A stretch of 40,181 nt of DNA from a virus, in the IMG/VR virus record IMGVR_UViG_3300020036_002545, one strand, 5' to 3'. The notes below the pieces were generated by a model, which saw only the letters and a program-made list of their open reading frames with translations, had not been told where the DNA came from and made no database searches. Below, one piece after another: positions 2,075 to 40,181 of the stretch. The position numbers were made by a program, and so were the translations under genes. How positions within the stretch are numbered: position 1 is the first letter of the stretch; the number at the start of each line of letters is the position of its first letter.

Positions 2075-2715
2075 AAATACTAAATCTCTATGCAAACATA
2101 GGAGGAAATAGAAAACTATGGGGAGATGAGCACGAAATCACTGCTGTTGAAATAGACCCTAACGTGGCACTAATTTATAAAGACTTTTGGCCGCGCGATA
2201 CTATGGTTATAGGAGATGCTCACCAGTATCTACAAGAGCATTACCAGGAGTTTGATTTTATTTGGTCTTCGCCTCCATGCCCAACACACAGTCAAGTAGG
2301 GAGACTTAGAGCATTCAACGAACACAACAAAGCTACAGGTCAATGGAGCGCGGCTAAATACCCAGATATGAAGTTGTATGAGGAAATACTATTCCTACAA
2401 GGCTACTTCAAAGGTAAATGGTGTGTTGAGAATGTTATCGCTTGGTATCCACCTCTAATCCCTTGCGTTGAAATGAGTGGTCATCGTCTATGGACTAATT
2501 TTATTCTTACCCAATTTAATGCCGGCCCTAGAAACATCACTACAAAAGGAGGAAACGATGCAAAAATCAGAGCTGAGAAGTTAGGGTTTGATTTATCAAA
2601 GTACAAAGGGATAGATAAAAGACTTGCATTGAGAGATTGTACCGAACCAGAGCTGGGAAAGCACATACTCGACCTTGCTATAAATCCTATAGAAATTCAA
2701 AAATCTATCTTCTAA
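2071..2715 (+). CDS. Compact C5-cytosine DNA methyltransferase-like protein
   Basis: Motif I-like LYANIGGN, motif IV SSPPCPTHS (catalytic Pro-Cys), motif VI CVENV. Only 214 aa, so no large target-recognition domain. Confidence 0.6.
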   Translation: MKILNLYANIGGNRKLWGDEHEITAVEIDPNVALIYKDFWPRDTMVIGDAHQYLQEHYQEFDFIWSSPPCPTHSQVGRLRAFNEHNKATGQWSAAKYPDMKLYEEILFLQGYFKGKWCVENVIAWYPPLIPCVEMSGHRLWTNFILTQFNAGPRNITTKGGNDAKIRAEKLGFDLSKYKGIDKRLALRDCTEPELGKHILDLAINPIEIQKSIF

Positions 2716-4623: not shown

Positions 4624-4648
4624 GCACCGTCATTTAGGCGGTGTTTTG
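4624..4648 (+). terminator. Rho-independent terminator
   Basis: gcaccg-(9 nt)-cggtgt hairpin followed by TTTTG. Confidence 0.5.
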
Positions 4649-8481: not shown

Positions 8482-8699
8482 TGAAAACTATCGGACATAT
8501 CGTAAAGTTAGACCCTACTAAGAAATATCTAATGCTTCTAGATATTAAAGAGATGAGAAAAGACGACATGAGAGAACTCGCAAACCTTATTAACTACATG
8601 AAAGACGGCGAACTCGTCACGGTTGCTCTAAATGATTTTGGAAGTGTTAAATTTGTCGAACTTAATGGTGAAATAGAAATAGGGTACGAAAAAATATAA
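8481..8699 (+). CDS. Hypothetical protein between the co-chaperonin and the chaperonin
   Basis: 72-aa ORF; TAATG overlaps on both sides. Confidence 0.5.
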   Translation: MKTIGHIVKLDPTKKYLMLLDIKEMRKDDMRELANLINYMKDGELVTVALNDFGSVKFVELNGEIEIGYEKI

Positions 8700-10252
8700 T
8701 GAAAAAGATACTTTTTGGTAACAACGGCAGTAAGCGTATTCTAAAAGGCATAAACATCACAACGGACGCAGTAGCCCCTACGCTCGGTGTAGTTGGAAAG
8801 CGTGCAATTCTCGACGCTGGACATCTTGACCCTATCTTTGCAGACGATGGCGCAAAGATACTCAACATGATTGACATCGAAGACCGTTGGGAACAGATGG
8901 GCAACCGTCTCATGCGTAAGATTGTCAACAAGATGCACCACAAGGCTGGCTCTGGTCGTACAACATCTGCCGTCCTTGCTCGTGCATTCGCTAATGAGGC
9001 ATATAAGGCTATAAAAAGAGGCACAGACCAGCGTGAAGTTGTAGAACGCCTAGAGAATGGATTGAAGAAGACCATCGAAATCCTCTCTACAATGAAGCGT
9101 GAAGTAAAAGACGAGGACGTTAAACGCCTTGCTCTCACTGAATCACTCGATGAAGACGTTGCAAACATAATCGCTAAGGCAGTAAAAGAACTCGGTAAAA
9201 ACGGGGTTATTTCTGTTGAAGAAAGCAACAAGGTAGAGCTTACGCTTGAAACCGTAAAGGGTATGCGTATCAAGAAAGGGCTTATCTCAGAGCATTTCGT
9301 CAATGACCCAGAGAAGAACCGTTGTGTATTGCAGAACCCGTATATCCTTATAGCCGACCGCCGTATCGCAACGAACTTTCAGATAAAGAACATTCTCGAA
9401 GCTATGGTTGCACAGGGTAGAACTGACTTGCTCGTCGTTGCTATGGACATAGAGGGAGAAGCTCTTGCATCGCTCATAATCAACCATCAGCGCAGAGCTA
9501 TGAATATAGCTTGCGTCCAAGCTCCGTACAAAGGACAGGCTCAGAGAGATTTCCTTGTTGACCTAGCTACTCTCACAGGTGGAACTGTTGTTAGTGAAGA
9601 AGCTGGAATGTTCCTCGATAAAGTAGGACTAGAAGTTCTTGGACAGGCTAACCAAATCACTGTAACCAAGGATGAGACGATTGTCTCTGGTGGCAAGGCT
9701 GATGAACAGGCTCTAAAAGACCGTATAATCGTCGTAGAGCAGTTTATTGAGCAGACTGCGGAGTATGACCGTAAAGTCGCACAAGAACGCTTGGCAGGGC
9801 TTACAAGCGGCGTAGGAGTCATTAGAGTTGGTGCGTTCACTGTAGACGAACTCCGTTTGAAGCGTGACAAGATTGAGGACGCTGTAAATTCGACTATGTT
9901 GTCCCTTGATGAGGGTATAGTAGCTGGTGGTGGAAGCTCACTTGTCCGTGTTGCAGGAATGATTGAAGACCCTATGTTTAAGCGTGCGCTTCTTGCACCG
10001 TTCAAGCAGATGGAAAAGAACGCAGGAATGAATCAAGGCTTTTGGAAGAAGAACACAGTCAAACAGATACAGGACAATAAGGATATAGGCTATGACTTTA
10101 AGTCTAAAAAGATAGTCAATATGTTCCGAGCAGGTATCATTGACCCTTACAAGGTAGAGCGTATAGCACTTGAAACAGCTATCTCTATCGCGTCTATCTT
10201 TGCTTCCCTCGATGTGTTCTGTGCGGAGTTCCCTGAAAAACAAGATAACTAA
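8699..10252 (+). CDS. groEL: GroEL-like group I chaperonin (Cpn60)
   Basis: Matches to GroEL:
- KILFGNNGSKRILKGINITTDAVAPTLGVVGKRAIL ~ [36 protein letters not shown]
- AGSGRTTSAVLA ~ AGDGTTTATVLA
- EGIVAGGG motif present
517 aa. Confidence 0.85.
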   Translation: MKKILFGNNGSKRILKGINITTDAVAPTLGVVGKRAILDAGHLDPIFADDGAKILNMIDIEDRWEQMGNRLMRKIVNKMHHKAGSGRTTSAVLARAFANEAYKAIKRGTDQREVVERLENGLKKTIEILSTMKREVKDEDVKRLALTESLDEDVANIIAKAVKELGKNGVISVEESNKVELTLETVKGMRIKKGLISEHFVNDPEKNRCVLQNPYILIADRRIATNFQIKNILEAMVAQGRTDLLVVAMDIEGEALASLIINHQRRAMNIACVQAPYKGQAQRDFLVDLATLTGGTVVSEEAGMFLDKVGLEVLGQANQITVTKDETIVSGGKADEQALKDRIIVVEQFIEQTAEYDRKVAQERLAGLTSGVGVIRVGAFTVDELRLKRDKIEDAVNSTMLSLDEGIVAGGGSSLVRVAGMIEDPMFKRALLAPFKQMEKNAGMNQGFWKKNTVKQIQDNKDIGYDFKSKKIVNMFRAGIIDPYKVERIALETAISIASIFASLDVFCAEFPEKQDN

Positions 10253-18136: not shown

Positions 18137-18142
18137 AAGCGA

Positions 18143-18187
18143 AGCTATGCTGGCGGCAGTTTATAGGGTTCGATTCCTTACATAGCT
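18143..18187 (+). ncRNA. tRNA-like minihelix (acceptor stem + T-arm only)
   Basis: Perfect 7-bp acceptor agctatg/catagct. T-arm taggg-TTCGATT-cctta. Only a 14-nt connector (ctg-gcgg-cag hairpin) replaces the D and anticodon arms. It ends 1 nt before ATG 18189. Confidence 0.5.
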
Positions 18188-18188
18188 T

Positions 18189-18719
18189 ATGGAAACAGTA
18201 AACAAAGAAAAAATGGAGAGTTTGAGACTGTTAGCGGAAACTACTATTAAGATTTCCGAGGCAAAAAACACACTCCAAGAACTCAAAAGCAAGCAAGAAG
18301 AATACTTGACACTCCGAGAGGATATGGCACAAAAGCATATTCAAAAGATACTCGAAGAAAGCAAGGAACTTCTTGAAAATACGCATAGCAACTACACGAA
18401 AGTAAATGTCTTCTGCCGAGAAGTAATGAGCTACGCAGACGGACTCAGTGAGATGCAAGTAGGTGTGCAAAACCTGTTAGAGACATTTAAAAACAAAGCA
18501 ATTCAATGGGAGAAAAACGCAGAACTGCAAACCATTGAACTATCGCACCAGAAAAAGCTAGTTGAACAGGACAAGGAAAATCTAAAGGAGTGGGAAAAGC
18601 GAATAGAGAAAGATAAAAAAAATATAGAGAAAGAAAAAGCACTGATTGAGAGCCGACAGAAAGCACTAGAGACAAGTTACAAGCTAGAAAAAGACCTATG
18701 GAACAAATTGACCGCATAA
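18189..18719 (+). CDS. Coiled-coil K/E-rich protein
   Basis: 176 aa, heptad-like E/K/L-rich throughout. Confidence 0.55.
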   Translation: METVNKEKMESLRLLAETTIKISEAKNTLQELKSKQEEYLTLREDMAQKHIQKILEESKELLENTHSNYTKVNVFCREVMSYADGLSEMQVGVQNLLETFKNKAIQWEKNAELQTIELSHQKKLVEQDKENLKEWEKRIEKDKKNIEKEKALIESRQKALETSYKLEKDLWNKLTA

Positions 18720-19216
18720 CAATAGAAAACGACACATTTGCCCTAAAGAGAGAGTACAAACACGCTCTTGAGAAACTTTCTAGTATCAAACAGGAGACTG
18801 TTGAGCTTGTTGACTCTAACACAAAGCTCGAAGTGTCAATAAAAGAAAAGAGGGACGAGCTTACACAAATCACAAACGACATTTCAAAGGAAAAACTCGA
18901 CTGGACACAGCATCGTCACGCTGAACTTGTTGAAATTGATGCAAAAAAGGACGAAATTGCGAGTATTCTAAAGAAAGATGCAGAACTCAAAAAGAAAGAG
19001 GCAGAAATCGACGCAAAAATACAGAAAAACACGACAGTATTGAACGAAAACAGACAGCTAGAGCTTAAACTTAAAGGTGACACTACTGCTCTCGAAGTAA
19101 AAAATCGGGAAGTAGAGAACAACCGAGCAACACTTGCAAAAGAAGTGCAGGATTTTGAAACGAAAAAAGTCGATTTCAAGACAAAATTGTCAGAATTAGT
19201 AAAAATATATGTCTAA
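18698..19216 (+). CDS. Coiled-coil K/E-rich protein
   Basis: 172 aa; 22-nt overlap with the previous gene. Confidence 0.55.
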   Translation: MEQIDRITIENDTFALKREYKHALEKLSSIKQETVELVDSNTKLEVSIKEKRDELTQITNDISKEKLDWTQHRHAELVEIDAKKDEIASILKKDAELKKKEAEIDAKIQKNTTVLNENRQLELKLKGDTTALEVKNREVENNRATLAKEVQDFETKKVDFKTKLSELVKIYV

Positions 19217-28894: not shown

Positions 28895-30886
28895 ATGCCC
28901 GATGAAATCCTAAAAAGAGACCAAAATAGAGTAACCGTATTGGCTGGTGTCACAAACGACTCAGACATGGATATTACCATGCTCCGTGTTGACCCAATAA
29001 CAAAAAGATTGTTAGTGGCTGCTACGGGTGGAGGAGGTAGTGCAGTCTGGGGTTCAATCACAGGAACACTCTCCGACCAGACAGACCTACAATCAGCTCT
29101 CGACGCTCGTGTTCCCTACACAGGCGCAACAGCAAACATAAATCTCAACACTCGCAGTATCACGCAAAACCTCATTGACGATACTAGAGGTTATGAAATA
29201 CAAAACACAGGAGGTGATACTCGCGCAATGCTCGGTCTTGGTGCTACGTCAGATGGCTTCCTAAATATTTTCAAAGCCGACAACTCTCTCGGTTTTTCTT
29301 CAGAGGGTGGTAACACATTCACATCTGCACTTTCTATCAACCTCCCAACGTCATTTAGCTACACATCTAACAACCCACTTTCGATAGGTTGGTCGGGTAA
29401 CACATATGGAGGTGGATATATTCAAAACCAATCAACTGGGACATCGGCTTCAGCTGACCTGATTCTTGGAGCAGATAACGACGGAGTAGCCGCGACTGGT
29501 CACTTCATAAACCTCGGTATCAACAACTCCAACTATGCTGGAGTTCTTGGTACTGCTGGAGATGGGTATCTTTACACTTCTGGTGGACACCAATATATTG
29601 GCACAGACACAGCAGGTAAAAATCTCTATTACCAAATAGGTGGTCTTTCGTCTACCAACGTAATCGGTGCTACAAACTCTACAGGTACTGGAATGGGTAC
29701 ACTATCCCCTACCGCACGTTTCCACGCAGTAGGAACAGCTGCTATCGGTACGCCAGTATTCACTGGTGCTGGTCTAAATGACCTTACTGCAGGAGGAACA
29801 TACATCGGAGGTACAAACTCTAACTACACCGTAACTATCTCTACAGTAAGCTCAATATACACATCGGCAGTTAGTGCAGGAGGAAGTGCGTGGGCTATCG
29901 GTGATACGTTCACAATTTCTGGTGGTACATCTGGTACTGGTATAGTCACTGCTGTATCCGCTGGCGCTGTGACTGCATACACAATTACAAACACAGGTTC
30001 TGCGTACACGACTGGTGTAAAAACGTGTACTCGAACGTCTGGTTCTGGTACTGGTCTTTCTATAAACATTACAGTTATTGCAGACAAGTTTAACTGGTTG
30101 AAGACTGGTGGAGCAACAACATTTAGTGTTGTTATAACTGGTGCAGCACAAACACTTGCAGAGGGTGTAACAATCACATTTGCGGCGCAGTCTGGTCACA
30201 CGGCATCAAACTCGTGGGCAGTACCAGTCACTGCTGTAAACCTATTCACTGGTGTCAGTAATACTGGTGCTGTAAACGCGTCTATCTCAAACTCTGGTGT
30301 TGCAACACTATCTGGTGATACTGCTCGTTTTGTCGCAGTAAACACATCGAATAGTCAATCTGTAACTATTTCTCCGACATCTATAGTAATTTCAACAACC
30401 ACAGGTGCAAACGGAGGAACTATAATTTCCGGTGGAGCTAACTTGCTTCAATTTGATAGTCCATTCCGTGTAACGTCACAAACGGTTCGCCCATACATGA
30501 ACGGCGGTGCATATAGCTCGACTGTCGGACGTATTACGTCAGCAGAAAACACGACAATGGGTATCGGATTCCCTGCAGCGAACTCGTTTAACTTTATAGT
30601 AAACTCAATCGAGCACGCTCGTCTTGACCTAAATGGTATGTTGCTCGGTTCAACTACTACAGTGAAAATGGGGCTATGGGGTAAAACTCCGATTGTACAG
30701 CCTGTAACTGCTCCATATACACCAGATGCACAATCTGTTGCATACACTGGTATCGACAACTTGCAGCCAGGCACTGTGTACGCAACCGTTGCTGATTTAA
30801 ACACGCTTCGTGTCGCGTATGAAAACCTACGGGTTGCATATGACGATTTACGAACACTCGTTATTTCAACAGGATTAGTAGCTTAA
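28895..30886 (+). CDS. Tail fibre / receptor-binding protein 2
   Basis: N-terminal MPDEILKRDQNRVTVLAGVTNDSDMDITMLRVDPITKRLLVAATGGGG is shared with 19798 and 19209; T/G/S-rich body of 663 aa. Confidence 0.7.
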   Translation: MPDEILKRDQNRVTVLAGVTNDSDMDITMLRVDPITKRLLVAATGGGGSAVWGSITGTLSDQTDLQSALDARVPYTGATANINLNTRSITQNLIDDTRGYEIQNTGGDTRAMLGLGATSDGFLNIFKADNSLGFSSEGGNTFTSALSINLPTSFSYTSNNPLSIGWSGNTYGGGYIQNQSTGTSASADLILGADNDGVAATGHFINLGINNSNYAGVLGTAGDGYLYTSGGHQYIGTDTAGKNLYYQIGGLSSTNVIGATNSTGTGMGTLSPTARFHAVGTAAIGTPVFTGAGLNDLTAGGTYIGGTNSNYTVTISTVSSIYTSAVSAGGSAWAIGDTFTISGGTSGTGIVTAVSAGAVTAYTITNTGSAYTTGVKTCTRTSGSGTGLSINITVIADKFNWLKTGGATTFSVVITGAAQTLAEGVTITFAAQSGHTASNSWAVPVTAVNLFTGVSNTGAVNASISNSGVATLSGDTARFVAVNTSNSQSVTISPTSIVISTTTGANGGTIISGGANLLQFDSPFRVTSQTVRPYMNGGAYSSTVGRITSAENTTMGIGFPAANSFNFIVNSIEHARLDLNGMLLGSTTTVKMGLWGKTPIVQPVTAPYTPDAQSVAYTGIDNLQPGTVYATVADLNTLRVAYENLRVAYDDLRTLVISTGLVA

Positions 30887-30896
30887 TAATAAACAT

Positions 30897-31136
30897 ATGA
30901 GAGATATAACAGAAAACATAGCAGAAGATGCTATCGCAAAAAAAATAGTAGTAAAAATAGTAGCTGACGATTTACAAAGTTACGCTGATTTTAACTACAC
31001 GCTTTTAAACGCCGAGGGAGAAGAGATTGAAACAGAGACAATTAAGTGCGAGGGAGAAGATTATGCAAATTGGGATAATAGTAACGAGTACCCATACACG
31101 TTTGTCTCTGGTAAACTTGGAATAACGATACTGTAA
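30897..31136 (+). CDS. Small acidic protein
   Basis: 79-aa ORF. Confidence 0.5.
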   Translation: MRDITENIAEDAIAKKIVVKIVADDLQSYADFNYTLLNAEGEEIETETIKCEGEDYANWDNSNEYPYTFVSGKLGITIL

Positions 31137-31534
31137 TGCCTTACGATGAAAAAGTAACATTTAAAGAACTTATGGACGCACACCTCGTTCCCATACATGA
31201 ACGCCTAGAACAAAATAGTGCGCTATTTAAGGAAACCCGCGAGGACATGAAAGAAGTAAAACAAATACTTACCGAAGTTCAATTACAAACTACACGCACA
31301 AACGGGCGTGTTAGTAAACTAGATGAATGGTCTGAGGGAGCAAAAAAAGTTATTGAGAACAATACTACAGCAGTCGCAGATTTAAAATGGTGGCGCGGTG
31401 CAGTTATCTGGGGTGCAGGTATTCTTGTGACATTTGTTTGTATATCTTACCCAGTGCTAAAATACATTGTGCAGAGACAAATAGAAGAAACAGTGCAAGC
31501 ATCATTAGCACAATTTAACATCGTAGTAAAATAA
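31136..31534 (+). CDS. XhlA-like lysis-associated membrane protein
   Basis: Coiled N-terminal part, then NNTTAVADLKWWRGAVIWGAGILVTFVCI, comparable to the XhlA C-terminal NNTW.WR...G TM segment. Confidence 0.45.
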   Translation: MPYDEKVTFKELMDAHLVPIHERLEQNSALFKETREDMKEVKQILTEVQLQTTRTNGRVSKLDEWSEGAKKVIENNTTAVADLKWWRGAVIWGAGILVTFVCISYPVLKYIVQRQIEETVQASLAQFNIVVK

Positions 31535-31535
31535 C

Positions 31536-31649
31536 ATGAAAAAAACTATAACAATGACACGCAAGCCAAAGCCTACTATCACTCTCACTCGCAAGCCACA
31601 GCCAGCACCTCGCAAGGTAGATATTCGCACAGTAGCCTATAAGAAATAA
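31536..31649 (+). CDS. Small highly basic protein (37 aa)
   Basis: MKKTITMTRKPKPTITLTRKPQPAPRKVDIRTVAYKK, with internal TRKP.P repeat; fills the gap before the endolysin. Confidence 0.3.
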   Translation: MKKTITMTRKPKPTITLTRKPQPAPRKVDIRTVAYKK

Positions 31650-31650
31650 T

Positions 31651-32223
31651 ATGGAACGCCTACAACTCTACTATCCATGCCGACCTTATAGTCTAAACCA
31701 AGGCTTCGGAGAAAATGCAAACGGATTCTACAAAGAACTCGGTATGCTCGGTCATAACGGTTGGGATTTATTCGCACCAGACGGCACATTAGTACGCGCA
31801 ACTCATGATGGCGTAGTCACGTTCTGCGGACACGATGGCTCTGGTGGACTTGGTGTTGTTATCCGTACAAAGAAGCCATTTATCTACCGCGACGGTGAAG
31901 CATTTTACAAAACAATATATTGGCATTTAAAGGAGGGAACTATCCGCGTCAAGCCAGACCAAGAAGTAGTAGCGGGAACTATCATAGCTCTCGCCGACAA
32001 CACAGGAATGTCCACAGGTTCACATCTTCATTTCGGTCTCAAACCTATGATGCAAGGCGAACAATCATGGCAATGGTACAATACAGAGCAAGACAACGGA
32101 TACCAAGGTGCAATAGACCCACTCCCATACTTCACAGGTGAATATGCGGACGTTGTGTATCCTGGTCTCGGTGCGCGTGCCTTTCAAGCATTACTAGATT
32201 TAGTTAAAAGTAAAAAAATATAA
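31651..32223 (+). CDS. M23-family peptidase (endolysin)
   Basis: HxxxD motif (GHNGWD) and HxH motif (SHLHFG), with the intervening THDGVV. Confidence 0.8.
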   Translation: MERLQLYYPCRPYSLNQGFGENANGFYKELGMLGHNGWDLFAPDGTLVRATHDGVVTFCGHDGSGGLGVVIRTKKPFIYRDGEAFYKTIYWHLKEGTIRVKPDQEVVAGTIIALADNTGMSTGSHLHFGLKPMMQGEQSWQWYNTEQDNGYQGAIDPLPYFTGEYADVVYPGLGARAFQALLDLVKSKKI

Positions 32224-32224
32224 T

Positions 32225-32497
32225 ATGGACTATAATTCAACAATAGAAGTTCTCGGAAACGCTGCTCTTTTAATGTCGTATGTTTGTGCGCTCACTATCG
32301 CCGTGATGCAGATTGTAAAGCAATTTAAAATTGCAAAACGATTTCTTCCGATTATTGCAATCATAATAGCAATAGTGATTACATTTCTTTTTGTTCCACA
32401 GTTTTCTGTGTCTATAGTCTTGATTGGTTTTGTATCTGGTTTGACAAGTATGGGATTGTTTACTGGTATAAAAAATACCGTTTCAAAGGGGTTATAA
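32225..32497 (+). CDS. Holin
   Basis: 90 aa with three hydrophobic spans and a charged C-terminus; directly after the endolysin. Confidence 0.65.
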   Translation: MDYNSTIEVLGNAALLMSYVCALTIAVMQIVKQFKIAKRFLPIIAIIIAIVITFLFVPQFSVSIVLIGFVSGLTSMGLFTGIKNTVSKGL

Positions 32498-32542
32498 TAC
32501 CCACGCCGACCTCTCACATTATTATTGCCGTGTCGGCAAGGA

Positions 32543-32567
32543 AACAGCATCTTCGGGTGCTGTTTTT
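32543..32567 (+). terminator. Rho-independent terminator
   Basis: aacagca-tcttcggg-tgctgtt followed by TTTTTG. Confidence 0.7.
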
Positions 32568-32572
32568 GTTCG

Positions 32573-32581
32573 TTATCCACA
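32573..32581 (+). promoter_or_regulatory. Perfect DnaA box TTATCCACA (GTTATCCACAG) overlapping the -35 position of a TATACT -10 (32603-32608)
   Basis: Exact 9-mer. The -10 ends 7 nt before ATG 32615, so the transcript may be leaderless. An alternative promoter is TTGACA(32588)-N17-TTATAT. Confidence 0.55.
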
Positions 32582-32614
32582 GTCGCATTGACAAAAATGC
32601 GATATACTTTTTAT

Positions 32615-32878
32615 ATGGTTTTATTTAGAGATTGTTTCGTGTGCGAAACACCAGAAAAGACAAATAGTTTAGAGCGAGTATTTTTTTGCAAGGAGTGTCT
32701 GTCATCCCAAGACAAACAGCGAGAAGTCGAAATAGAGTGCTACGTCTGCAAAGACATCATTATTAGAAAAAACATAATCAAAAATGGAACATGTTATCCG
32801 TGTAGACGAAAGAAGCGTAATGAATACCAGAGGAAATGGGAAGCTCTGTTTAATCTGCAAAAACAAGCTGAAAAATAA
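32615..32878 (+). CDS. Double zinc-ribbon small protein
   Basis: CFVC-x13-CKEC and CYVC-x14-CYPC; alternative ATG at 32597. The upstream part of track ORF 32525 crosses the terminator and is rejected. Confidence 0.55.
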   Translation: MVLFRDCFVCETPEKTNSLERVFFCKECLSSQDKQREVEIECYVCKDIIIRKNIIKNGTCYPCRRKKRNEYQRKWEALFNLQKQAEK

Positions 32879-32966
32879 CATGCAGGTATATTTCTGCTCT
32901 ACAGAGTGCGGAAAGAAAGGTGCGAGTATCACATACATGCCCTATAAAGCCGTAAAACGCTCATAG
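32820..32966 (+). CDS. Zinc-ribbon small protein (start uncertain)
   Basis: CLIC-x12-CSTEC. It overlaps the previous gene by 59 nt. Alternative start 32880 sits in a TAACATG junction. Confidence 0.35.
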   Translation: MNTRGNGKLCLICKNKLKNNMQVYFCSTECGKKGASITYMPYKAVKRS

Positions 32967-32978
32967 CAAGGTTTAAAT

Positions 32979-33128
32979 ATGAAAAACGACACTATACACC
33001 ACTCACGCACTAAAACGGTAAATAAGCCCTATGTCTGCGTATCTTGTAAAAAGGAGACATCGCAGTTATATTCTGGAAGTTGTCCACAGTGCGAGTTTGC
33101 CAAACGAAAGGAAAAACGTAAACTATAG
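32979..33128 (+). CDS. Zinc-ribbon small protein (49 aa)
   Basis: CVSC-x11-CPQC then a basic tail KRKEKRKL; not in the track (<60 aa). Confidence 0.45.
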   Translation: MKNDTIHHSRTKTVNKPYVCVSCKKETSQLYSGSCPQCEFAKRKEKRKL

Positions 33129-33193
33129 ATGTCAGTATTTCGATAGTCTACTGACAAGCATATACATCATGTAAGCCTTATATGATGTATCGG

Positions 33194-33281
33194 AGAGGCA
33201 TAGAATACGGTGCTGCTCCGCTTCCACGGAGGTCTGCTACTACAGACGGACGAAAGTCCAAGCGCTGTGCTCTGTGCCTCT
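33194..33281 (+). ncRNA. Structured RNA R1: about 21-bp closing helix capped by three short hairpins
   Basis: agaggca/tgcctct, extended by 14 more pairs of which 4 are G-U. The hairpins are ctccg/cggag, gtctg/cagac and ggac-GAAA-gtcc. It is flanked by the 9-bp direct repeat TATCGGAGA. Confidence 0.45.
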
Positions 33282-33286
33282 TATAT

Positions 33287-33358
33287 CGGAGAATAGCTTA
33301 ATGGTGAAGCAATCGTCTTATACACGATAGACTGATGGTTCAAGTCCATCTTCTCCGA
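33287..33358 (+). tRNA. tRNA-Ile (anticodon UAU, reads AUA)
   Basis: Hand-folded cloverleaf:
- acceptor cggagaa/ttctccg
- D arm gctt-aatggtg-aagc
- anticodon arm atcgt-cTTATac-acgat
- T arm gatgg-TTCAAGT-ccatc
No encoded CCA. Confidence 0.8.
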
Positions 33359-33360
33359 CA

Positions 33361-34116
33361 ATGAACAAAATCATACAGGGTGACTGTTTAGAAGTAATGA
33401 AAAAAATAGGAGATAATTCCATAGATTTAACAGTAACCTCTCCACCGTATGATAATTTACGAGACTATAACGGTTATACTTTTGACTTCAAAAATATTGC
33501 AAAAGAACTTTTTAGAGTAACAAAGCAAGGTGGTGTAGTTGTTTGGATTGTTGGTGATGCAACAATTAAAGGAAGTGAAACAGGAACATCATTTAAACAA
33601 GCACTTTACTTTAAGGAGATTGGATTTAATTTGCACGATACAATGATATGGAAAAAGCAGACTTTTACTGATACAGGGTCGCTCCAGTGTAGATACGGTG
33701 GAGTATTTGAATATATGTTTATTTTGTCAAAAGGAAAAATAAAAACATTTAACCCCATAAAAGACAGATTAAATAAAAAACCGAATATTAAAAAAAACGG
33801 AAGTATTAGACAAAAAGATGGTACAACAAGACCTCAATCATCTTTAGGAAAAAAAGCAAACATTTACGGTCAGAGATTTAATGTTTGGGAAATAAACACG
33901 GAAATTTCAAATAGTAATAGATTTCACCCAGCACAATTTTCTGAAAAACTAGCTGAAGACCACATATTATCTTGGAGTAACAAAGGCGACATCGTACTTG
34001 ACCCGATGGCAGGAAGTGGGACAACATTAAAAATGGCAAAGAAAAACGATAGAAATTATATTGGAATAGAAATATCGGCAGAGTACATAAAAATTATTGA
34101 AGAAAGACTAAAATAG
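33361..34116 (+). CDS. N6-adenine/N4-cytosine DNA methyltransferase (beta class)
   Basis: Motif IV TSPPY near the N-terminus and motif I DPMAGSGTT near the C-terminus. Confidence 0.8.
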   Translation: MNKIIQGDCLEVMKKIGDNSIDLTVTSPPYDNLRDYNGYTFDFKNIAKELFRVTKQGGVVVWIVGDATIKGSETGTSFKQALYFKEIGFNLHDTMIWKKQTFTDTGSLQCRYGGVFEYMFILSKGKIKTFNPIKDRLNKKPNIKKNGSIRQKDGTTRPQSSLGKKANIYGQRFNVWEINTEISNSNRFHPAQFSEKLAEDHILSWSNKGDIVLDPMAGSGTTLKMAKKNDRNYIGIEISAEYIKIIEERLK

Positions 34117-34156
34117 TTATCAACATATTGTAGCAATCCTACTTAAAAGTTATAGT
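34117..34156 (+). promoter_or_regulatory. Degenerate DnaA box TTATCAACA abutting the TAG stop, plus promoter TTGTAG-N17-TATAGT
   Basis: Same TAG+box context as at 36600 and 38239. The predicted start near 34163 coincides with the first base of helix R2. Confidence 0.45.
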
Positions 34157-34163
34157 ATATGTA

Positions 34164-34240
34164 CTTCCCTGCGGTATTGTGCTTTCAAGCATAAATACGT
34201 TCACAAAGGAAGCCTAAAGTATAGTTTTCTTGCAGGGAAG
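34164..34240 (+). ncRNA. Structured RNA R2 (9-bp closing helix)
   Basis: cttccctgc (34164-34172) pairs with gcagggaag (34232-34240). Confidence 0.35.
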
Positions 34241-34244
34241 ACTA

Positions 34245-34358
34245 TGGGGAGTGGTAGAGTGGCAATACAAAAATGTGCAAGATGGCCGTGAGTAGTATTT
34301 ATACGAAAGCAATAAGCTACACCTTTTTCCTCGCAAGGTTCGATTCCTTGCCTCCCAA
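34245..34358 (+). ncRNA. tRNA-like element with expanded anticodon domain (114 nt)
   Basis: Acceptor tggggag/cctccca has 6 of 7 pairs. D arm is gta-gagtggcaa-tac. The T arm caagg-TTCGATT-ccttg is canonical. A 65-nt insert, including a GAAA-capped hairpin at 34292-34320, replaces a normal anticodon arm. Confidence 0.4.
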
Positions 34359-34435
34359 CACCGCAGTCTGTATGACTGCCGTACTTACAAGCACGATACG
34401 CTTGTACATGCCCGTTGCTTCGGGTTTTCTAAACA

Positions 34436-34575
34436 CACCACTATCGCTGGGCTTTGCCGTAACAATTCGTTCAACATCTTCTCAACATATCTTTGCCGGA
34501 TCGATGGAGAGACTGAACGATAAATAAGGCAATCGACTCAAAAGAGTACGACTGAGGCTTTCCGTGATAGTGGTG
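34436..34575 (+). ncRNA. Structured RNA R3 (10-bp closing helix around about 120 nt)
   Basis: caccactatc (34436-34445) pairs perfectly with gatagtggtg (34566-34575). Hairpins at 34363-34379 and 34386-34406 lie upstream. Confidence 0.35.
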
Positions 34576-34578
34576 TAT

Positions 34579-34656
34579 CACTCCATAGTTTAATGGTAAA
34601 AACCAAATCCTCATGTAAATGAGTAGCATATGCAGGTTCGATTCCTGCTGGGGTGG
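34579..34656 (+). ncRNA. tRNA-like element with a collapsed anticodon loop (possible pseudo-tRNA or decoy)
   Basis: Acceptor cactcca/tggggtg has 7 pairs including one G-U. D arm is gttt-aatggtaa-aaac. T arm is gcagg-TTCGATT-cctgc. The middle folds as ctcat-GTAA-atgag (4-nt loop). I found no 5-bp stem with a 7-nt loop. Confidence 0.45.
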
Positions 34657-34686
34657 CTGTGCAATTATTATTTAGCTATATAAAAC

Positions 34687-34908
34687 ATGGATTCAGGAAT
34701 ATCTATCGGAGAAGCTCGCGTTCGTACAGCGTTCAATCCAAGCGACGATGCAGCAGTAACAGTTATCAAAAACAAAACTGCCGAGCTTATCAACCTCTGT
34801 GAGACACTTAAAGCAGCAGACCCTCGACTTGCTTCAATAGCTATGACTACATTTGAAGAAGCAGCTATGTGGGCAGTGAAGCTCGCAACAACAAATCCAT
34901 CAGCATAA
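34687..34908 (+). CDS. Small all-helical protein (73 aa)
   Basis: ORF between the tRNA-like element and tRNA-Arg. The motif FNPSDDAAVTVIKNKTAELINLCE...TTFEEAAMWAVKLAT is familiar from small phage proteins, but I cannot name the family. Confidence 0.6.
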   Translation: MDSGISIGEARVRTAFNPSDDAAVTVIKNKTAELINLCETLKAADPRLASIAMTTFEEAAMWAVKLATTNPSA

Positions 34909-34919
34909 GCTGGTGGTAT

Positions 34920-34992
34920 GGGTAAATAGCTCAACAGACAGAGCAACGGACTTCTAAGCCGTAGGTTGTAGGTGCAATTCCTACTTTACCCT
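34920..34992 (+). tRNA. tRNA-Arg (anticodon UCU, reads AGA)
   Basis: Hand-folded cloverleaf:
- acceptor gggtaaa/tttaccc
- D arm gctc-aacagaca-gagc
- anticodon arm acgga-cTTCTaa-gccgt (one A-G mismatch)
- T arm gtagg-TGCAATT-cctac
The elbow is atypical. Confidence 0.7.
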
Positions 34993-34993
34993 C

Positions 34994-35203
34994 ATGTATA
35001 TACCAAAAGACAAACAATGGTTTTGTGATAGAATAGGTAAAACTATTTATCGTGATACACTAAAAAAGTGTTGCGAAACGTGTGACCATGTAGCTACAAA
35101 CGGTTTAATAGTTACAGACAAAGACCACGCTGATTATCTTGCTATGATAGACATGGATTTTGGCGCAGAGGGTATTTATTCAAATTACAGAGATACTTTA
35201 TAG
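34994..35203 (+). CDS. Hypothetical Cys-containing protein
   Basis: 69-aa ORF; the ATG starts 1 nt after the tRNA-Arg end. Confidence 0.5.
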   Translation: MYIPKDKQWFCDRIGKTIYRDTLKKCCETCDHVATNGLIVTDKDHADYLAMIDMDFGAEGIYSNYRDTL

Positions 35204-35255
35204 GAAAGTTACTACGGTTTATTAGAAAATGAGATAAACTAAGTAAGATGGCAGT

Positions 35256-35333
35256 ACAAAAGGGAAGGGTAGTTATTCTTAACAATCCTGCGGCATAGAG
35301 AATACATTGTCGTTAGACCCCCTTTCCTTTTGT
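35256..35333 (+). ncRNA. Structured RNA R4 (14-bp closing helix plus inner 6-bp hairpin)
   Basis: acaaaagggaaggg pairs with ccctttccttttgt (one G-U). The inner hairpin is tattct/agaata. Terminator 35350-35375 follows. Confidence 0.4.
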
Positions 35334-35349
35334 GTTGCTTTCAAAGTAA

Positions 35350-35375
35350 AAGACCGCTAAAAACGGTCTTTTTTA
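35350..35375 (+). terminator. Rho-independent terminator
   Basis: aagaccg-ctaaaaa-cggtctt followed by TTTTT. Confidence 0.75.
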
Positions 35376-35507
35376 ATACACACAAAAAACGCCACAAGTG
35401 CAAAGAAGATAATTGTCTCCATATAGAATGTTTCCTGTAGTGTACTAGGTTATTGCCGAAGCCGTCAAAAACTATTGACACAAATATACTTTTCATGTCA
35501 CTATAGA

Positions 35508-35598
35508 CAAGTACCTCCAGTTTTAGCTACAGTTAGGTACTCACATTGTATACAAAGAGCCAGCGACCGACTTTTGATAACGGGCTGGCTTTTCTTTT
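35508..35598 (+). ncRNA. Candidate small RNA (two hairpins, own terminator)
   Basis: TTGACA at 35475-35480 lies upstream, but the -10 is unclear. The hairpin is agtacct/aggtact (35510-35541). The terminator is agccagc/gctggct plus TTTTCTTTT (35558-35598). Confidence 0.3.
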
Positions 35599-35601
35599 AC
35601 G

Positions 35602-35639
35602 TTATCCACAGAAGACAAACAAGAAACGTGTACTACAAT
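35602..35639 (+). promoter_or_regulatory. Perfect DnaA box TTATCCACA (35602-35610) abutting the -35 region; -10 TACAAT (35634-35639)
   Basis: Exact 9-mer, 3 nt after the terminator T-tract; AAGACA-N16-TACAAT. Confidence 0.55.
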
Positions 35640-35678
35640 GTACGCATGATTCTACTTGGAAACATACTTGAAGAAAGA

Positions 35679-35993
35679 ATGAAAGCCTACACGCTTGACC
35701 CAAAAGGCGTAGAGGAACAAGTAAAAGCCCGAGGGAAAGAGTACAACAAAAAATGGAACGACGCAGTGCAGTTTTTCCAAAAGCAGATAAACCGTGAACG
35801 TGAAAAAGATGGTATGAAGCCATTAGGGTTTATGCCGATACGGTACAAGCTCATGGCGTTGCCAGAGATAGACGAACTTCGTTGGTTTTACCATCACTGT
35901 ATAAAATACTCTAAGACAAAAGACAAGATGGGTAACTGGAACACGTTTAGCAAGTGTTTCTGGGGTGCGCTGGACGCAAAGAAATGTAAATAG
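35679..35993 (+). CDS. Hypothetical protein (104 aa)
   Basis: Internal ATG of track ORF 35475..35993. The upstream part crosses a terminator and the DnaA box, and starts at the TTG of TTGACA. Confidence 0.55.
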   Translation: MKAYTLDPKGVEEQVKARGKEYNKKWNDAVQFFQKQINREREKDGMKPLGFMPIRYKLMALPEIDELRWFYHHCIKYSKTKDKMGNWNTFSKCFWGALDAKKCK

Positions 35994-36017
35994 TATAATT
36001 TATACATATTTTTCTAC

Positions 36018-36030
36018 AACTAGCAGTCAA
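36018..36030. repeat. Left arm of 13-bp perfect inverted repeat bracketing gene 36040..36315
   Basis: aactagcagtcaa is the reverse complement of ttgactgctagtt at 36328-36340. Confidence 0.85.
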
Positions 36031-36039
36031 GTCAAGTCT

Positions 36040-36315
36040 ATGTCTAGCAAAAATAAAAACAATGTTTCTAATGGTGTTGCAGTAAGTGCTAATTGTTCTC
36101 CGAATGATGTCGTATACGTTTTAAAATCATATTCAATTCAAGATTTGGAAGGGAAAATACTTACATTTATCGATGCAAGTATTCAAGACCCTATACAAAG
36201 AAAAGCTTTAAAAGATTTGCTCCGTCCTATGGTTTGGACTTGGGCAATCGAAAGCAATATGTCGAGTTATTATGAAGTGAAAGAAGTTAGTGTTTGTTCA
36301 GGGCGTGTCAATTAA
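36040..36315 (+). CDS. Hypothetical protein (91 aa)
   Basis: Internal ATG of track ORF 35965; TATAAT at 35994-35999 lies upstream. Confidence 0.5.
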   Translation: MSSKNKNNVSNGVAVSANCSPNDVVYVLKSYSIQDLEGKILTFIDASIQDPIQRKALKDLLRPMVWTWAIESNMSSYYEVKEVSVCSGRVN

Positions 36316-36327
36316 AAACTAATAATT

Positions 36328-36340
36328 TTGACTGCTAGTT
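36328..36340. repeat. Right arm of the 13-bp inverted repeat
   Basis: See 36018-36030. Confidence 0.85.
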
Positions 36341-36350
36341 ATATAACGAT

Positions 36351-36602
36351 ATGTCTTGGAATTATAGAATGATACGGACAAAAGAAAATGAAACTTATGT
36401 ATATCATGTACATGAGGTTTATTATGATAAAAATGGCAAGCCAAAGAGTTGGTCAGAAAACCCTATTACACCTTACGGAGAATCTCAAAGCGATGTCTAT
36501 GAAGACTTGATACTTATGCAAAAATCTTTCCAGCAAAAACCTTTCGATATTGTAGATGACAAACTTGTTGAAATAAATGTAGGTAAAATTTCTGGTAAAT
36601 AG
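36351..36602 (+). CDS. Hypothetical protein
   Basis: 83-aa ORF. Confidence 0.55.
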   Translation: MSWNYRMIRTKENETYVYHVHEVYYDKNGKPKSWSENPITPYGESQSDVYEDLILMQKSFQQKPFDIVDDKLVEINVGKISGK

Positions 36603-36611
36603 TTTTCCACA
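36603..36611 (+). promoter_or_regulatory. DnaA-box variant TTTTCCACA (fits TTWTNCACA) abutting the TAG stop
   Basis: TAGTTTTCCACAG parallels TAGTTATCCACAG at 38239. Candidate promoter TTGAAA(36639)-N17-AATAGT. Confidence 0.45.
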
Positions 36612-36670
36612 GATGTTGGCTTGCATTATTCTGTAGGTTTGAAATAATGTAAGTGTTCGCAAATAGTTCA

Positions 36671-36737
36671 CATGACTCGTTACGGAGAGTCGTGGGCAGT
36701 AATCGCTCGCTCAGCCGTAACTGGTCGGGCGATTTTT
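36671..36737 (+). ncRNA. Candidate small RNA (8-bp hairpin plus terminator hairpin)
   Basis: The first hairpin is catgactc/gagtcgtg (one G-U). The terminator is aatcgc...gcgatt followed by TTTTTG. The predicted transcription start is near 36674. Confidence 0.4.
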
Positions 36738-36817
36738 GTTGGTCTAACCAGCTTCTCATATTGAAGACTAGCGGACATTAAAAGGCTAGGGCAAATATGC
36801 AATACGGATACAAGATA

Positions 36818-36933
36818 CCGAAGTTCAAGTTTTGCTCTTTATCAACTAAATATCATCTATTCATATCTTTAAAGAGAAACGGATAGTAGGAAAACAAAGG
36901 GTTTCGGGCATAAATCATATGGCTTGAACTCGG
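36818..36933 (+). ncRNA. Structured RNA R5 (11-bp closing helix with a bulge; inner 7-bp helix)
   Basis: ccgaagttcaag pairs with cttgaactcgg; the inner helix is ctcttta/taaagag. No credible ORF on either strand between 36612 and 37002. Confidence 0.3.
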
Positions 36934-37002
36934 ACTGGAAAACGGCTTGGGGGTTGGTGTAGTGTATTACACTTAGTATTACAAATAATAGATAAATAAA
37001 AA

Positions 37003-37290
37003 ATGAAAAACGTGAATTATTTGGCTTTGAAATATCGTTGCAAGCATGAACATGACTATATGCTTAATAGGTTTGATAGGATTTTTTACACTATTAAATT
37101 CATGATTTGTTGGAATTTAAAACGACAACCAAAAGAGTGCCAGTACGACGGTATTCATGTGGCATGTTTTAATTTCCGTAACGATTTCTCACTGGATGCA
37201 ATGAACGCAAAGAGCTGGGATTATATAAGAGTAGGCCCAGGTTATTTTACTAATTGGTGGGCGTATTGTGGCGATGATAGTAACTATTAA
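37003..37290 (+). CDS. Hypothetical protein
   Basis: 95-aa ORF. The 13-nt palindrome agtgtaTtacact (36961-36973) lies upstream. Confidence 0.5.
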   Translation: MKNVNYLALKYRCKHEHDYMLNRFDRIFYTIKFMICWNLKRQPKECQYDGIHVACFNFRNDFSLDAMNAKSWDYIRVGPGYFTNWWAYCGDDSNY

Positions 37291-37293
37291 ACG

Positions 37294-37431
37294 ATGAAAA
37301 AGTACAAGAAACACCCATCTAAATTATTTCAAGTACGTCTATCAGAAACAGAATACGAAGAAGTCATAGCAGAGATTAAAAAAACAGGACTAACTCGCAG
37401 AGCTTATATATTAGAAGTAATTAAAAAATAA
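37294..37431 (+). CDS. Ribbon-helix-helix-like small protein (45 aa)
   Basis: KLFQVRLSETEYEEVIAEIKKTGLTRRAYILEVIKK has a strand-helix-helix layout; the TAA abuts the next ATG. Confidence 0.4.
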   Translation: MKKYKKHPSKLFQVRLSETEYEEVIAEIKKTGLTRRAYILEVIKK

Positions 37432-37620
37432 ATGTCATCACCAAAACCCGACTTCATGCAAAAGAACCGCTATAGAAAACTAGAAAAGCTAGAGGTAAGA
37501 CTCTACGATAAAGATTGTCCTGTGTGTGGAACAAACGAAGTGATTTTCCTTTGGAGCGAAGAACTAAAAAAGTACACAACTAGTCGCTGTGGGAGTTTGA
37601 ACTGTAAGTATGGAAACTAG
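37432..37620 (+). CDS. Zinc-ribbon small protein
   Basis: CPVCG...CGSLNC; 62 aa. Confidence 0.5.
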   Translation: MSSPKPDFMQKNRYRKLEKLEVRLYDKDCPVCGTNEVIFLWSEELKKYTTSRCGSLNCKYGN

Positions 37621-37623
37621 CCT

Positions 37624-38241
37624 ATGAAAATACTAGTAGCCTGTGAAGAGAGCCAAGCAGTCTGTAAAGCGTTCCGTGCGAAAGGACACGAAGCATACTC
37701 GTGCGACATACTGCCTTGCAGCGGAGGACACCCAGAGTGGCACATACAGGGTGATGTTATTGAGCAATTAGAAAAGGAGTGGGACATGATTATTGCACAT
37801 CCACCTTGTACTGATTTAGCTGTTAGCGGGGCTAGGCATTTTGAGCGTAAGCGAAAGGATGGTTCCCAGCAAAAAAGCATTGATTTCTTTATGGCATTTA
37901 CTAAAGCAAAATGCGAAAAGATAGCAATAGAAAACCCAGTATGTATCATGTCTTCGATTTACCGAAAACCAGACCAAATAATACAGCCATATCAATTTGG
38001 ACATGAAGCTCGAAAAACAACATGCTTGTGGCTTAAAGGACTCCCTTTATTGAAGCCAACAAAAATAGTAGGTCAAGGTGAAATAGTAATCATGGGCGAT
38101 GGTAAAAAATATCCTAAATGGTCACATGATGCAGTCGGAGAGAACGGAAAAAAGTTAGCGTATAACTCTAAAGAAATCAAAACATTACGCTCAAAGACAT
38201 TCCAAGGCATAGCCGATGCTATGGCAGAACAATGGGGATAG
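37624..38241 (+). CDS. Compact C5-cytosine methyltransferase-like protein (second paralogue type)
   Basis: MKILVACEESQ N-terminus, motif IV AHPPCTDLAVSG, motif VI IENP, C-terminal RSKTFQGIADAMAEQW; 205 aa. Confidence 0.55.
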   Translation: MKILVACEESQAVCKAFRAKGHEAYSCDILPCSGGHPEWHIQGDVIEQLEKEWDMIIAHPPCTDLAVSGARHFERKRKDGSQQKSIDFFMAFTKAKCEKIAIENPVCIMSSIYRKPDQIIQPYQFGHEARKTTCLWLKGLPLLKPTKIVGQGEIVIMGDGKKYPKWSHDAVGENGKKLAYNSKEIKTLRSKTFQGIADAMAEQWG

Positions 38242-40030: not shown

Positions 40031-40181
40031 ATGAATAAAAAAAGAATAGAACTACTCGGAACGCTTCACATCAAAAAAGTACCAGAAGCACTCAAAGATA
40101 AAATATATAGTCATATAAAAGACCGCCGTGGTATGTCACAGTTTGTACGAGAGGCTATGGAGGAGAAATTAGCACGCGATA
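40031..40181 (+). CDS. Ribbon-helix-helix protein, N-terminal part (continues at 1..150 in the circular molecule)
   Basis: The ATG 40031 frame runs into the terminal repeat and matches frame 1 of bases 1-150. Confidence 0.6.
   Translation, partial: MNKKRIELLGTLHIKKVPEALKDKIYSHIKDRRGMSQFVREAMEEKLARD
40061..40181. repeat. Terminal direct repeat copy 2
   Basis: Identical to 1-121. Confidence 0.95.

Follow-up and report, generated by a model that had tools for sequence, protein, structure and literature searches.

A plus-strand island of tRNAs, tRNA-like elements and stem-closed RNA modules in a phage genome

Positions 33129-35375 (+ strand) of IMG/VR record IMGVR_UViG_3300020036_002545, a viral sequence of 40,181 nt that we call the window, hold an RNA-rich island in which canonical transfer RNAs (tRNAs) are interleaved with tRNA-like elements and stem-closed structured RNAs. 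We find excess folding and compensatory changes across this block, in keeping with selection at the RNA level on the + strand, as an earlier note made from the sequence alone had argued. The reading that we favour, if only modestly, is that the island is a + strand array of self-contained RNA modules, made as one precursor that would be cut at the tRNAs and tRNA-like elements. All the elements listed in the earlier note are recovered in place by ARAGORN, Rfam and folding; the modules and the flanking signals are as follows, with z denoting a fold score against 200 dinucleotide shuffles.

32572-32615, +: promoter-like region, a GTTATCCACAG box followed by TTGACA; the box recurs, and here comes directly after a terminator (32540-32567)
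33130-33156, +: hairpin P1, just 3' of the stop codon of the last zinc-ribbon open reading frame (ORF)
33162-33190, +: leader hairpin P2, its frame kept in four lineages
33194-33281, +: R1, a 20-bp closing helix with three short hairpins, one of them GAAA-capped (z = -7.8)
33287-33359, +: canonical tRNA-Ile(UAU), called by ARAGORN and Rfam (70.6 bits)
34164-34240, +: R2, a 9-bp closing helix, a variable hairpin 1 and an invariant core with hairpin 2 (z = -5.0)
34245-34358, +: X, a 114-nt tRNA-derived element, from an acceptor/T-arm scan
34363-34379, 34386-34406 and 34410-34425, +: hairpins a, b and c, from folding
34436-34575, +: R3, a 12-bp closing helix, a conserved core and two variable inserts at 34471-34516 and 34540-34555 (z = -5.05)
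34579-34657, +: T78, a 78-nt tRNA-derived element, matched by Rfam RF00005 (42.5 bits, threshold 29) and called 'Thr-TGT' by ARAGORN
34920-34993, +: canonical tRNA-Arg(UCU), called by ARAGORN and Rfam (64.5 bits)
35256-35333, +: R4, a 14-bp closing helix with two small hairpins (z = -4.2)
35348-35372, +: intrinsic terminator closing the island (z = -4.15), conserved in the relative L024 described below

A sliding scan of 120-nt windows over 30800-38200 (7.4 kb, + strand) gives z < -3 in seven windows only, with coding flanks scattered near 0. Two of these lie on the P1/P2/R1 block; the upstream terminator, R2, R4 and the hairpins downstream of X account for one each, and the last (34880-34999) takes in most of tRNA-Arg. 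The + strand folds more stably than the - strand in all R elements and in three of the four leader hairpins, which upholds the case for the + strand that the earlier note had built on G-U pairs. On the - strand z is only -4.0 for R1, where the + fold is more stable by 11 kcal/mol, -3.5 for R2, -4.7 for R3 and -2.2 for R4; the hairpin pair after X reaches z = -3.4 on the + strand. Wherever the R1 closing helix departs from Watson-Crick pairing in the + strand fold it has a G-U wobble, and arm mismatches of this kind point to selection at the RNA level.

Only three ORFs of the island look real, as the earlier note had held, and the same three are the only gene calls there on an identical public contig:

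33361-34116, +: orphan N6/N4 DNA methyltransferase (methylase) gene, Pfam PF01555 (156 bits)
34687-34908, +: gene for a 73-aa Acb2/Tad1 hairpin-domain protein, Pfam PF24729 (44.6 bits, cutoff 27; E = 1.7e-11)
34994-35203, +: 69-aa ORF, from the gene call

An 84-aa ORF at 34273-34527, running across X and R3, was discarded: it is called on no contig and is disrupted both by the R3 swap described below and by the arrangement in L024.

Relatives of the island are few and come from Logan and Joint Genome Institute (JGI) assemblies at ~80-100% identity. Protein look-ups lead to the near-identical JGI contigs L017-19, L031 and L032, and two Logan contigs are ~80% identical: L020, which ends inside the island just after its tRNA-like element, and L024, in which the island is inverted relative to the endolysin gene. 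These amount to three to four independent lineages, ~80% identical, so that the compensatory changes reported here are descriptive, with no statistical covariation test. Every contig that reaches the relevant position has the leader hairpin, tRNA-Ile, R2, a tRNA-like element, hairpins, R3 and tRNA-Arg, and the lineage-specific insertions sit at the junctions between modules. These insertions are R1; the methylase; T78 with the Acb2/Tad1 gene; and the 69-aa ORF with R4, the last module being confined to the window's own lineage and identical in all close copies. The methylase cassette (33360-34163) is absent from L031, L020 and L024, and the cassette of T78 and the Acb2/Tad1 gene, flanked by GTGGTGTAT and GGTGGTAT, is absent from L024. 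On this mosaic the array is a recombination platform.

The order of modules in L024 is instructive in a further respect. Its ~0.9 kb between tRNA-Ile and tRNA-Arg form an RNA array with two tRNA-like elements and no protein gene, which suggests that the island began as RNA only and acquired its protein cassettes later, at the joints. Between these two elements (2405-2662, minus strand) L024 has in addition a 245-nt RNA (z = -5.6), multi-branched and closed by a 15-bp helix, which matches no Rfam family and is absent from the window. As a separate observation, the zinc-ribbon region of L031 (1-620) is only 69% identical to window 32588-33131, and the two strains are 98% identical from R2 onwards; the break falls at the invariant tRNA-Ile, which suggests that this tRNA is a recombination hot spot.

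Such independent gain and loss bears on a proposal of the earlier note, that the block could belong with large ornate RNAs of the GOLLD/ROOL type. We searched 4227 Rfam families with relaxed filters down to E<=10, and no non-tRNA family passes its gathering threshold in the window, GOLLD, ROOL, HEARO, introns and ribozymes included; at E<=10 the only matches besides tRNA antisense echoes are two at chance level (E 2-3), near R4 and the terminator. The search of L024 ends the same way, with no family beyond tRNA at E<=10. An ornate RNA does have many helices and a place beside tRNAs in a phage, as here, but the modules of the island are 77-140 nt long, each with its own closing helix, they are gained, lost and reshuffled singly among the relatives, and three protein genes interrupt them. 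As far as models of sequence and structure can show, the proposal did not hold up, and we consider a diverged GOLLD, ROOL or HEARO RNA extremely unlikely.

The leader hairpin and R1 illustrate two kinds of variation. P2 shares the frame AUAC...GUAU across the four lineages, with stem interiors that are wholly different yet fully complementary, and its 3' end lies 1 nt from tRNA-Ile in the relatives; at the P1 position, L020 and L031 have a hairpin of other sequence. R1 is a lineage-specific 96-nt insertion between P2 and tRNA-Ile, present in L032 and absent from L031, L020 and L024, with a 9-nt direct repeat, TATCGGAGA, on both sides (33188-33196 and 33284-33292). An origin of R1 as a duplicate of tRNA-Ile was rejected, as similarity outside the 9-nt repeat is not significant. 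Presence or absence between direct repeats, together with the flanked T78 cassette and the shuffling of modules between phages, is what would be seen if the elements were features of the DNA: miniature inverted-repeat mobile elements, or sites of recombination or replication. Against this, the inverted arms of R1 occur in one copy per genome among the sequences compared, with no dispersed copies, no transposase is found nearby, the imperfect R1 pairs and their strand preference are those described above, and pairing is kept by compensatory changes, which together make a role at the DNA level very unlikely.

Those changes, and the conserved cores, are found in modules present in every contig that reaches their position. 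R2, present in all four, shows a compensatory U-A to A-U double change in its closing helix, and its hairpin 1 has given way to unrelated sequence with an equivalent hairpin fold; the 23-nt core GUUCACAAAGGAAGCCUAAAGUA is invariant, and a linker, ACUAU, joins R2 to the downstream tRNA-like element. A covariance model of R2, run over 395 kb, recovers only its four training copies. We also considered R2 as an HDV (hepatitis delta virus)-like or other self-cleaving ribozyme that trims the 3' end of tRNA-Ile, with an internal GGAAG as a possible partner of its 5' strand. The idea was dropped: position 1 is not a G, P1 of such a fold would have only 5 bp, and no Rfam ribozyme matches. In hairpin a, pairing survives two double changes in L024 and the loop UGUAU is kept.

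R3 varies in a different manner. Three versions are known, with a core of the form CAYCACUAUCGCUGGGCUUUGCC ... UAAAUAAGGCAA ... AGGCUUUCCGUGAUAGUGGUG, in which long unpaired stretches are invariant, and a closing helix with one C-G to U-G change in L024. When L019 is aligned with the window, the 43 differing columns are all confined to 34466-34560, the other ~2.05 kb being identical; in L018 a single difference falls outside that segment. The replaced segments fold again into hairpins, and the first insert is missing altogether from L024. Judged from these alignments, the R3 interior is exchanged as a cassette between otherwise identical strains, by recombination between conserved core sequences and not by point mutation, and replacement of this kind implies a pool of R3 alleles. 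This swap goes beyond what the earlier note had described.

Invariant unpaired cores are hard to reconcile with mere spacers and therefore argue that R2 and R3 would be recognised by sequence, by a protein or another RNA. They bear directly on whether the R modules act in cis only, as processing, insulating or stabilising structures for the tRNAs and messenger RNAs (mRNAs), for instance as ribonuclease (RNase) III-type sites or 3'-end protectors. Terminal helices of 9-20 bp, the position of every module beside a tRNA, a tRNA-like element or a terminator, and a P2 that conserves pure structure with its sequence free would all suit that role. A generic helix, however, has no need of the 23 invariant nt of R2, or of the long invariant unpaired stretches that R3 keeps while nearby helices vary, and R1 is dispensable in three lineages; a purely cis-acting set of modules strikes us as unlikely, though credible.

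Two canonical tRNAs belong to the array. tRNA-Ile is 100% identical across all four lineages, and tRNA-Arg is 96.6% identical in L024, where R3 directly adjoins it. AUA makes up 37% of the Ile codons of the phage and AGA 26% of its Arg codons, so that two working tRNAs would read codons that are common in the phage.

Elements X and T78 are of another kind. The earlier note had called both tRNA-like; for T78 this is borne out by the ARAGORN and Rfam calls, and X, which neither program reports (no ARAGORN call, no Rfam match at E<=10), nevertheless keeps the arms. T78 shows the canonical tRNA cloverleaf with its acceptor, D and T arms in good form, but the anticodon arm is defective and is treated by the Rfam model as a 24-nt insertion. 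In the ARAGORN register the loop is CAUGUAA, with A at position 33 in place of U33 and a stem with 3 of 5 pairs, and the minimum-energy fold takes an alternative register, CUCAU-GUAA-AUGAG, that is a 5-bp stem with a GUAA tetraloop. X has 6 of 7 bp in its acceptor stem, the GG of the D-loop and a perfect T-arm, CAAGGUUCGAUUCCUUG, with ~60 nt of weakly structured sequence replacing the anticodon and variable regions. As an intron-containing tRNA, X was rejected: a group I intron would have to be far longer than this insert, whose excision restores no proper anticodon loop.

The relatives carry comparable elements, which fall into two types whose order varies between phages. L020 has at the X position an element scoring 36.8 bits against the Rfam tRNA model, with a shortened anticodon arm and a long extra arm, and the L024 version is 177 nt long, its 'anticodon arm' enclosing a further T-arm-like hairpin. 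T78 is similar to tRNA-Ile (z = 6.0 for the similarity) and to the L024 element X1 (z = 4.7); the L020 counterpart of X is likewise similar to tRNA-Ile (z = 4.9) and to the second L024 element (z = 6.9). CACC and then a hairpin follow downstream of all the tRNA-like elements. The acceptor/T-arm part of a tRNA is the region recognised by RNase P, RNase Z and the CCA-adding enzyme, and X and T78, as predicted from their folds, keep this 'top half' (acceptor, T-arm and D-arm) and cannot decode, because the usable anticodon arm is lost.

Two structures elsewhere are of related form. A 47-nt intergenic mini tRNA-like helix at 18142-18188 of the window has an 8-bp acceptor stem (AAGCUAUG/CAUAGCUU) and a T-arm UAGGGUUCGAUUCCUUA, and the base directly after it begins the ATG of the ORF at 18189-18719. 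L003, an unrelated phage that also has an Acb2 homologue, holds at 18741-18930 a 190-nt tRNA-like element with a 7/7 acceptor stem, a perfect T-arm and a ~115-nt insert, for which ARAGORN makes no call.

How the modules are joined bears on processing from one precursor. R1, R2 and R3 end, with a final U, 3-5 nt 5' of a tRNA or tRNA-like element, in the order P2 or R1 before tRNA-Ile, R2 before X, and R3 before T78 (window) or tRNA-Arg (L024); the 245-nt RNA of L024 likewise precedes the second tRNA-like element there via a short U-ending leader. The methylase ATG lies 2 nt after the tRNA-Ile discriminator and that of the 69-aa ORF 1 nt after the tRNA-Arg discriminator, with the ATG at 18189 behind the mini acceptor/T-arm helix as a third case. 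The earlier note had placed a promoter at 34128-34156 to start transcription at R2; a consensus scan does not find it, and it sits in the tail of the methylase cassette that L031, L020 and L024 lack. R2 needs no promoter of its own, because in those three contigs it starts 2 nt after the tRNA-Ile discriminator.

A probable start lies upstream. The GTTATCCACAG box has 8 matches with <=1 mismatch in place of 2.3 expected, and those at 4648, 32572, 35601, 36603 and 38241 fall on gene-cluster boundaries (four exact, 36603 with one mismatch), two of them directly after a terminator hairpin. The box is probably a lineage-specific promoter or regulator site, and region 32572-32615 probably drives the island, a function that we infer. 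Three such boxes, with several hairpin/terminator units, also occur in a ~1.3-kb gene-free stretch after tRNA-Pro and tRNA-Gln in a distant relative (L034, 20123-21440), which has no sequence relation to the island. At the other end, the terminator at 35348-35372 was missed by a pattern scan because its A-tract pairs with the T-run. Further downstream, small-RNA-like units at 35498-35600 and 36645-36742 each have a strong intrinsic terminator (z = -2.1 and -3.2) and are preceded by promoter-like sequence; an element that the earlier note called R6 may be one of them.

In the favoured reading, a single precursor would run from the promoter region at ~32572-32615 to the terminator at 35348-35372, and host RNase P and RNase Z would cut it at every tRNA and tRNA-like element, X and T78 serving as punctuation. 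Cutting would free the tRNAs together with small RNAs, each with its ends paired in a 9-20-bp terminal helix, and would leave mRNAs that are nearly leaderless, with AUG 1-2 nt from the new 5' end. R2 and R3 would then be bound through their conserved cores by a protein or another RNA.

Several points weigh against this reading. X as a whole folds no better than its shuffles (z = 0), and the mini helix at 18142-18188 is not significantly stable (z = -0.8). R1 and R4 come without comparative support, only three to four lineages are available for covariation, and the promoter is assigned from the recurring box only. Hairpin c is followed by a U-run and may be a weak terminator or attenuator, and hairpin b of L024 is followed by UUUUU; either could end transcription in mid-array, in which case R3 and everything after it might need read-through. 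Moreover, that RNase P and RNase Z cut the precursor, that R1-R4 are stable and that leaderless mRNAs are translated are all steps that we infer.

The protein genes supply a counter-defence context that the earlier note had not described, in the form of the Acb2/Tad1-family gene and the orphan methylase. A structure model of the 73-aa protein (predicted local distance difference test, pLDDT, 92) has Acb2/Tad1 hairpin proteins as its top two BFVD matches, with template modelling (TM) scores of 0.81 and 0.73 and E = 4e-3 and 1.5e-2; a profile match to T4 Vs.4 is weak (E = 0.13), and a fold search of the PDB gives no significant match. The assignment draws on Pfam and on these matches to viral predicted structures, and makes the protein a putative sponge for cyclic-nucleotide immune signals. 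The 69-aa ORF has no Pfam, PHROG or PDB match and forms a singleton cluster. In a distant phage (L006, 10001-10763) an Acb2 homologue is followed by a terminator and an ordinary five-tRNA array, so Acb2 and tRNAs occur together there too, with none of the extra RNAs.

This context invites the view that the R modules and the tRNA-like elements work in trans as counter-defence RNAs, serving as decoys or sponges that engage host immune proteins which target tRNAs or sense RNA, with the R3 inserts under diversifying selection. An operon shared with the two counter-defence genes, tRNA look-alikes that lack an anticodon loop, the cassette swap of R3 within otherwise identical DNA, the conserved cores of R2 and R3 and the distant Acb2 homologue beside a tRNA array are all consistent with it. 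Yet we know of no target, and the variable R3 inserts have no significant complementarity to the phage or the other sequences compared, where only chance-level matches of 12-15 nt occur; the family is too rare to reveal a link with any defence system, and gene neighbourhood alone is weak evidence. We rate such a role as unlikely. A combined version, in which degenerate tRNAs are processing handles that yield leaderless counter-defence mRNAs as well as tRNA-framed or stem-closed small RNAs, these acting as decoys or guides against host RNA- or tRNA-directed immunity with the R3 inserts as a swappable specificity module, seems to us doubtful and distinctly unlikely.

The genome around the island is that of a phage with nearly all genes on the + strand, coding for a large terminase, a major head protein and an M23 endolysin. 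Bases 1-121 of the window recur identically at 40061-40181, and because its two ends are identical over these 121 nt the window is a circularly closed assembly, a complete phage genome of ~40,060 bp. Directly upstream of the large terminase gene and adjoining it, a 517-aa ORF (8699-10252) matches a phage GroEL-like chaperonin family (phrog_5725, E = 9e-103). The host is probably a member of the Bacteroidota, a guess from weak matches to Chitinophagaceae proteins.

Wider searches add no further copy of the array. Endolysin, tail-fibre, R2-core and tRNA-Ile probes find no relatives in IMG/VR, and exact-pattern scans give none in JGI metagenome contigs (R3 core, R2 core) or GTDB genomes (R2 core, tRNA-Ile). 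GenBank phages share only the methylase and tRNAs with the island, and no similar RNAs occur at sixteen IMG/VR loci that carry Acb2 homologues (46-68% identity). Distant phages reached through the tail-fibre N-terminus, the endolysin or the closest Acb2 homologue (L021-23, L025-30, L034-38) have no homologous modules.

Set beside known systems, the island touches several. According to an eLife 2023 article (PMC10264068), phage tRNAs with altered anticodon loops escape host anticodon nucleases. T78 and X resemble those tRNAs in that they, too, are encoded by a phage, differ from the host type in the anticodon loop and stand in a setting of defence and counter-defence; the tRNAs described there have a variant loop, whereas T78 and X have no usable anticodon arm and so are predicted not to decode. 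In mitochondrial 'tRNA punctuation', as in the island, tRNAs stand directly between genes and start codons lie at or next to tRNA 3' ends, a layout in which cuts by RNase P and RNase Z would give leaderless mRNAs. The island belongs to a bacterial virus and the analogy would be one of mechanism only; a literature search found no report of tRNA punctuation in phages. In engineered tRNA scaffolds and in the tRNA-like/microRNA (miRNA) units of gammaherpesviruses, a tRNA frame carries or precedes unrelated hairpins and supplies the processing signals. The succession of X, CACC and hairpins a and b matches that arrangement by analogy, in a different biological system, and its hairpins are candidate products only.

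If R2 and R3 and their companions prove to be mere processing spacers, the island would still document tRNA arrays as landing pads for accessory genes. RNA-level selection, conserved cores, non-decoding tRNA look-alikes and an exchanged cassette are signs of function, and they occur in an operon with known types of counter-defence gene; the island is thus a concrete candidate for RNA-based counter-defence, with a model in which tRNA-punctuated processing would yield leaderless mRNAs and small stable RNAs. Should the decoy or guide reading hold, it would represent a class of RNA-based counter-defence with a swappable specificity module.

Among known systems the T4 tRNA cluster, with rnaC and rnaD, comes nearest, and the likeness is one of architecture only: no sequence similarity of the island to rnaC or rnaD was detected, and its matches to the T4 region are only 12 nt long and at chance level. 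Phage tRNA clusters have been known to hold stable non-tRNA RNAs since T4 species 1 and 2, and to our knowledge the function of rnaC and rnaD has never been explained. Both loci are same-strand phage tRNA clusters that include tRNA-Ile and tRNA-Arg with coding sequence between them, segB in T4 and the ORFs described here. In T4, rnaD (species 2, 119 nt) starts 1 nt after tRNA-Arg and rnaC (species 1, 139 nt) 6 nt further on, and R1, R2 and R3 adjoin a tRNA or tRNA-like element on the same strand in a comparable way. rnaC is an enlarged RNA with a canonical T-arm, CCGGGUUCGAAUCCCGG, near its 3' end, as is X, and neither the two T4 RNAs nor the R RNAs of the island have an Rfam family. Unlike T4, a phage of E. 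coli, the island has more non-tRNA modules than tRNAs, counter-defence genes embedded among them, an R3 with exchangeable inserts and a host that is probably one of the Bacteroidota. By its architecture it would be a second, richer example of the stable-RNA type of tRNA cluster, probably in a Bacteroidota phage.

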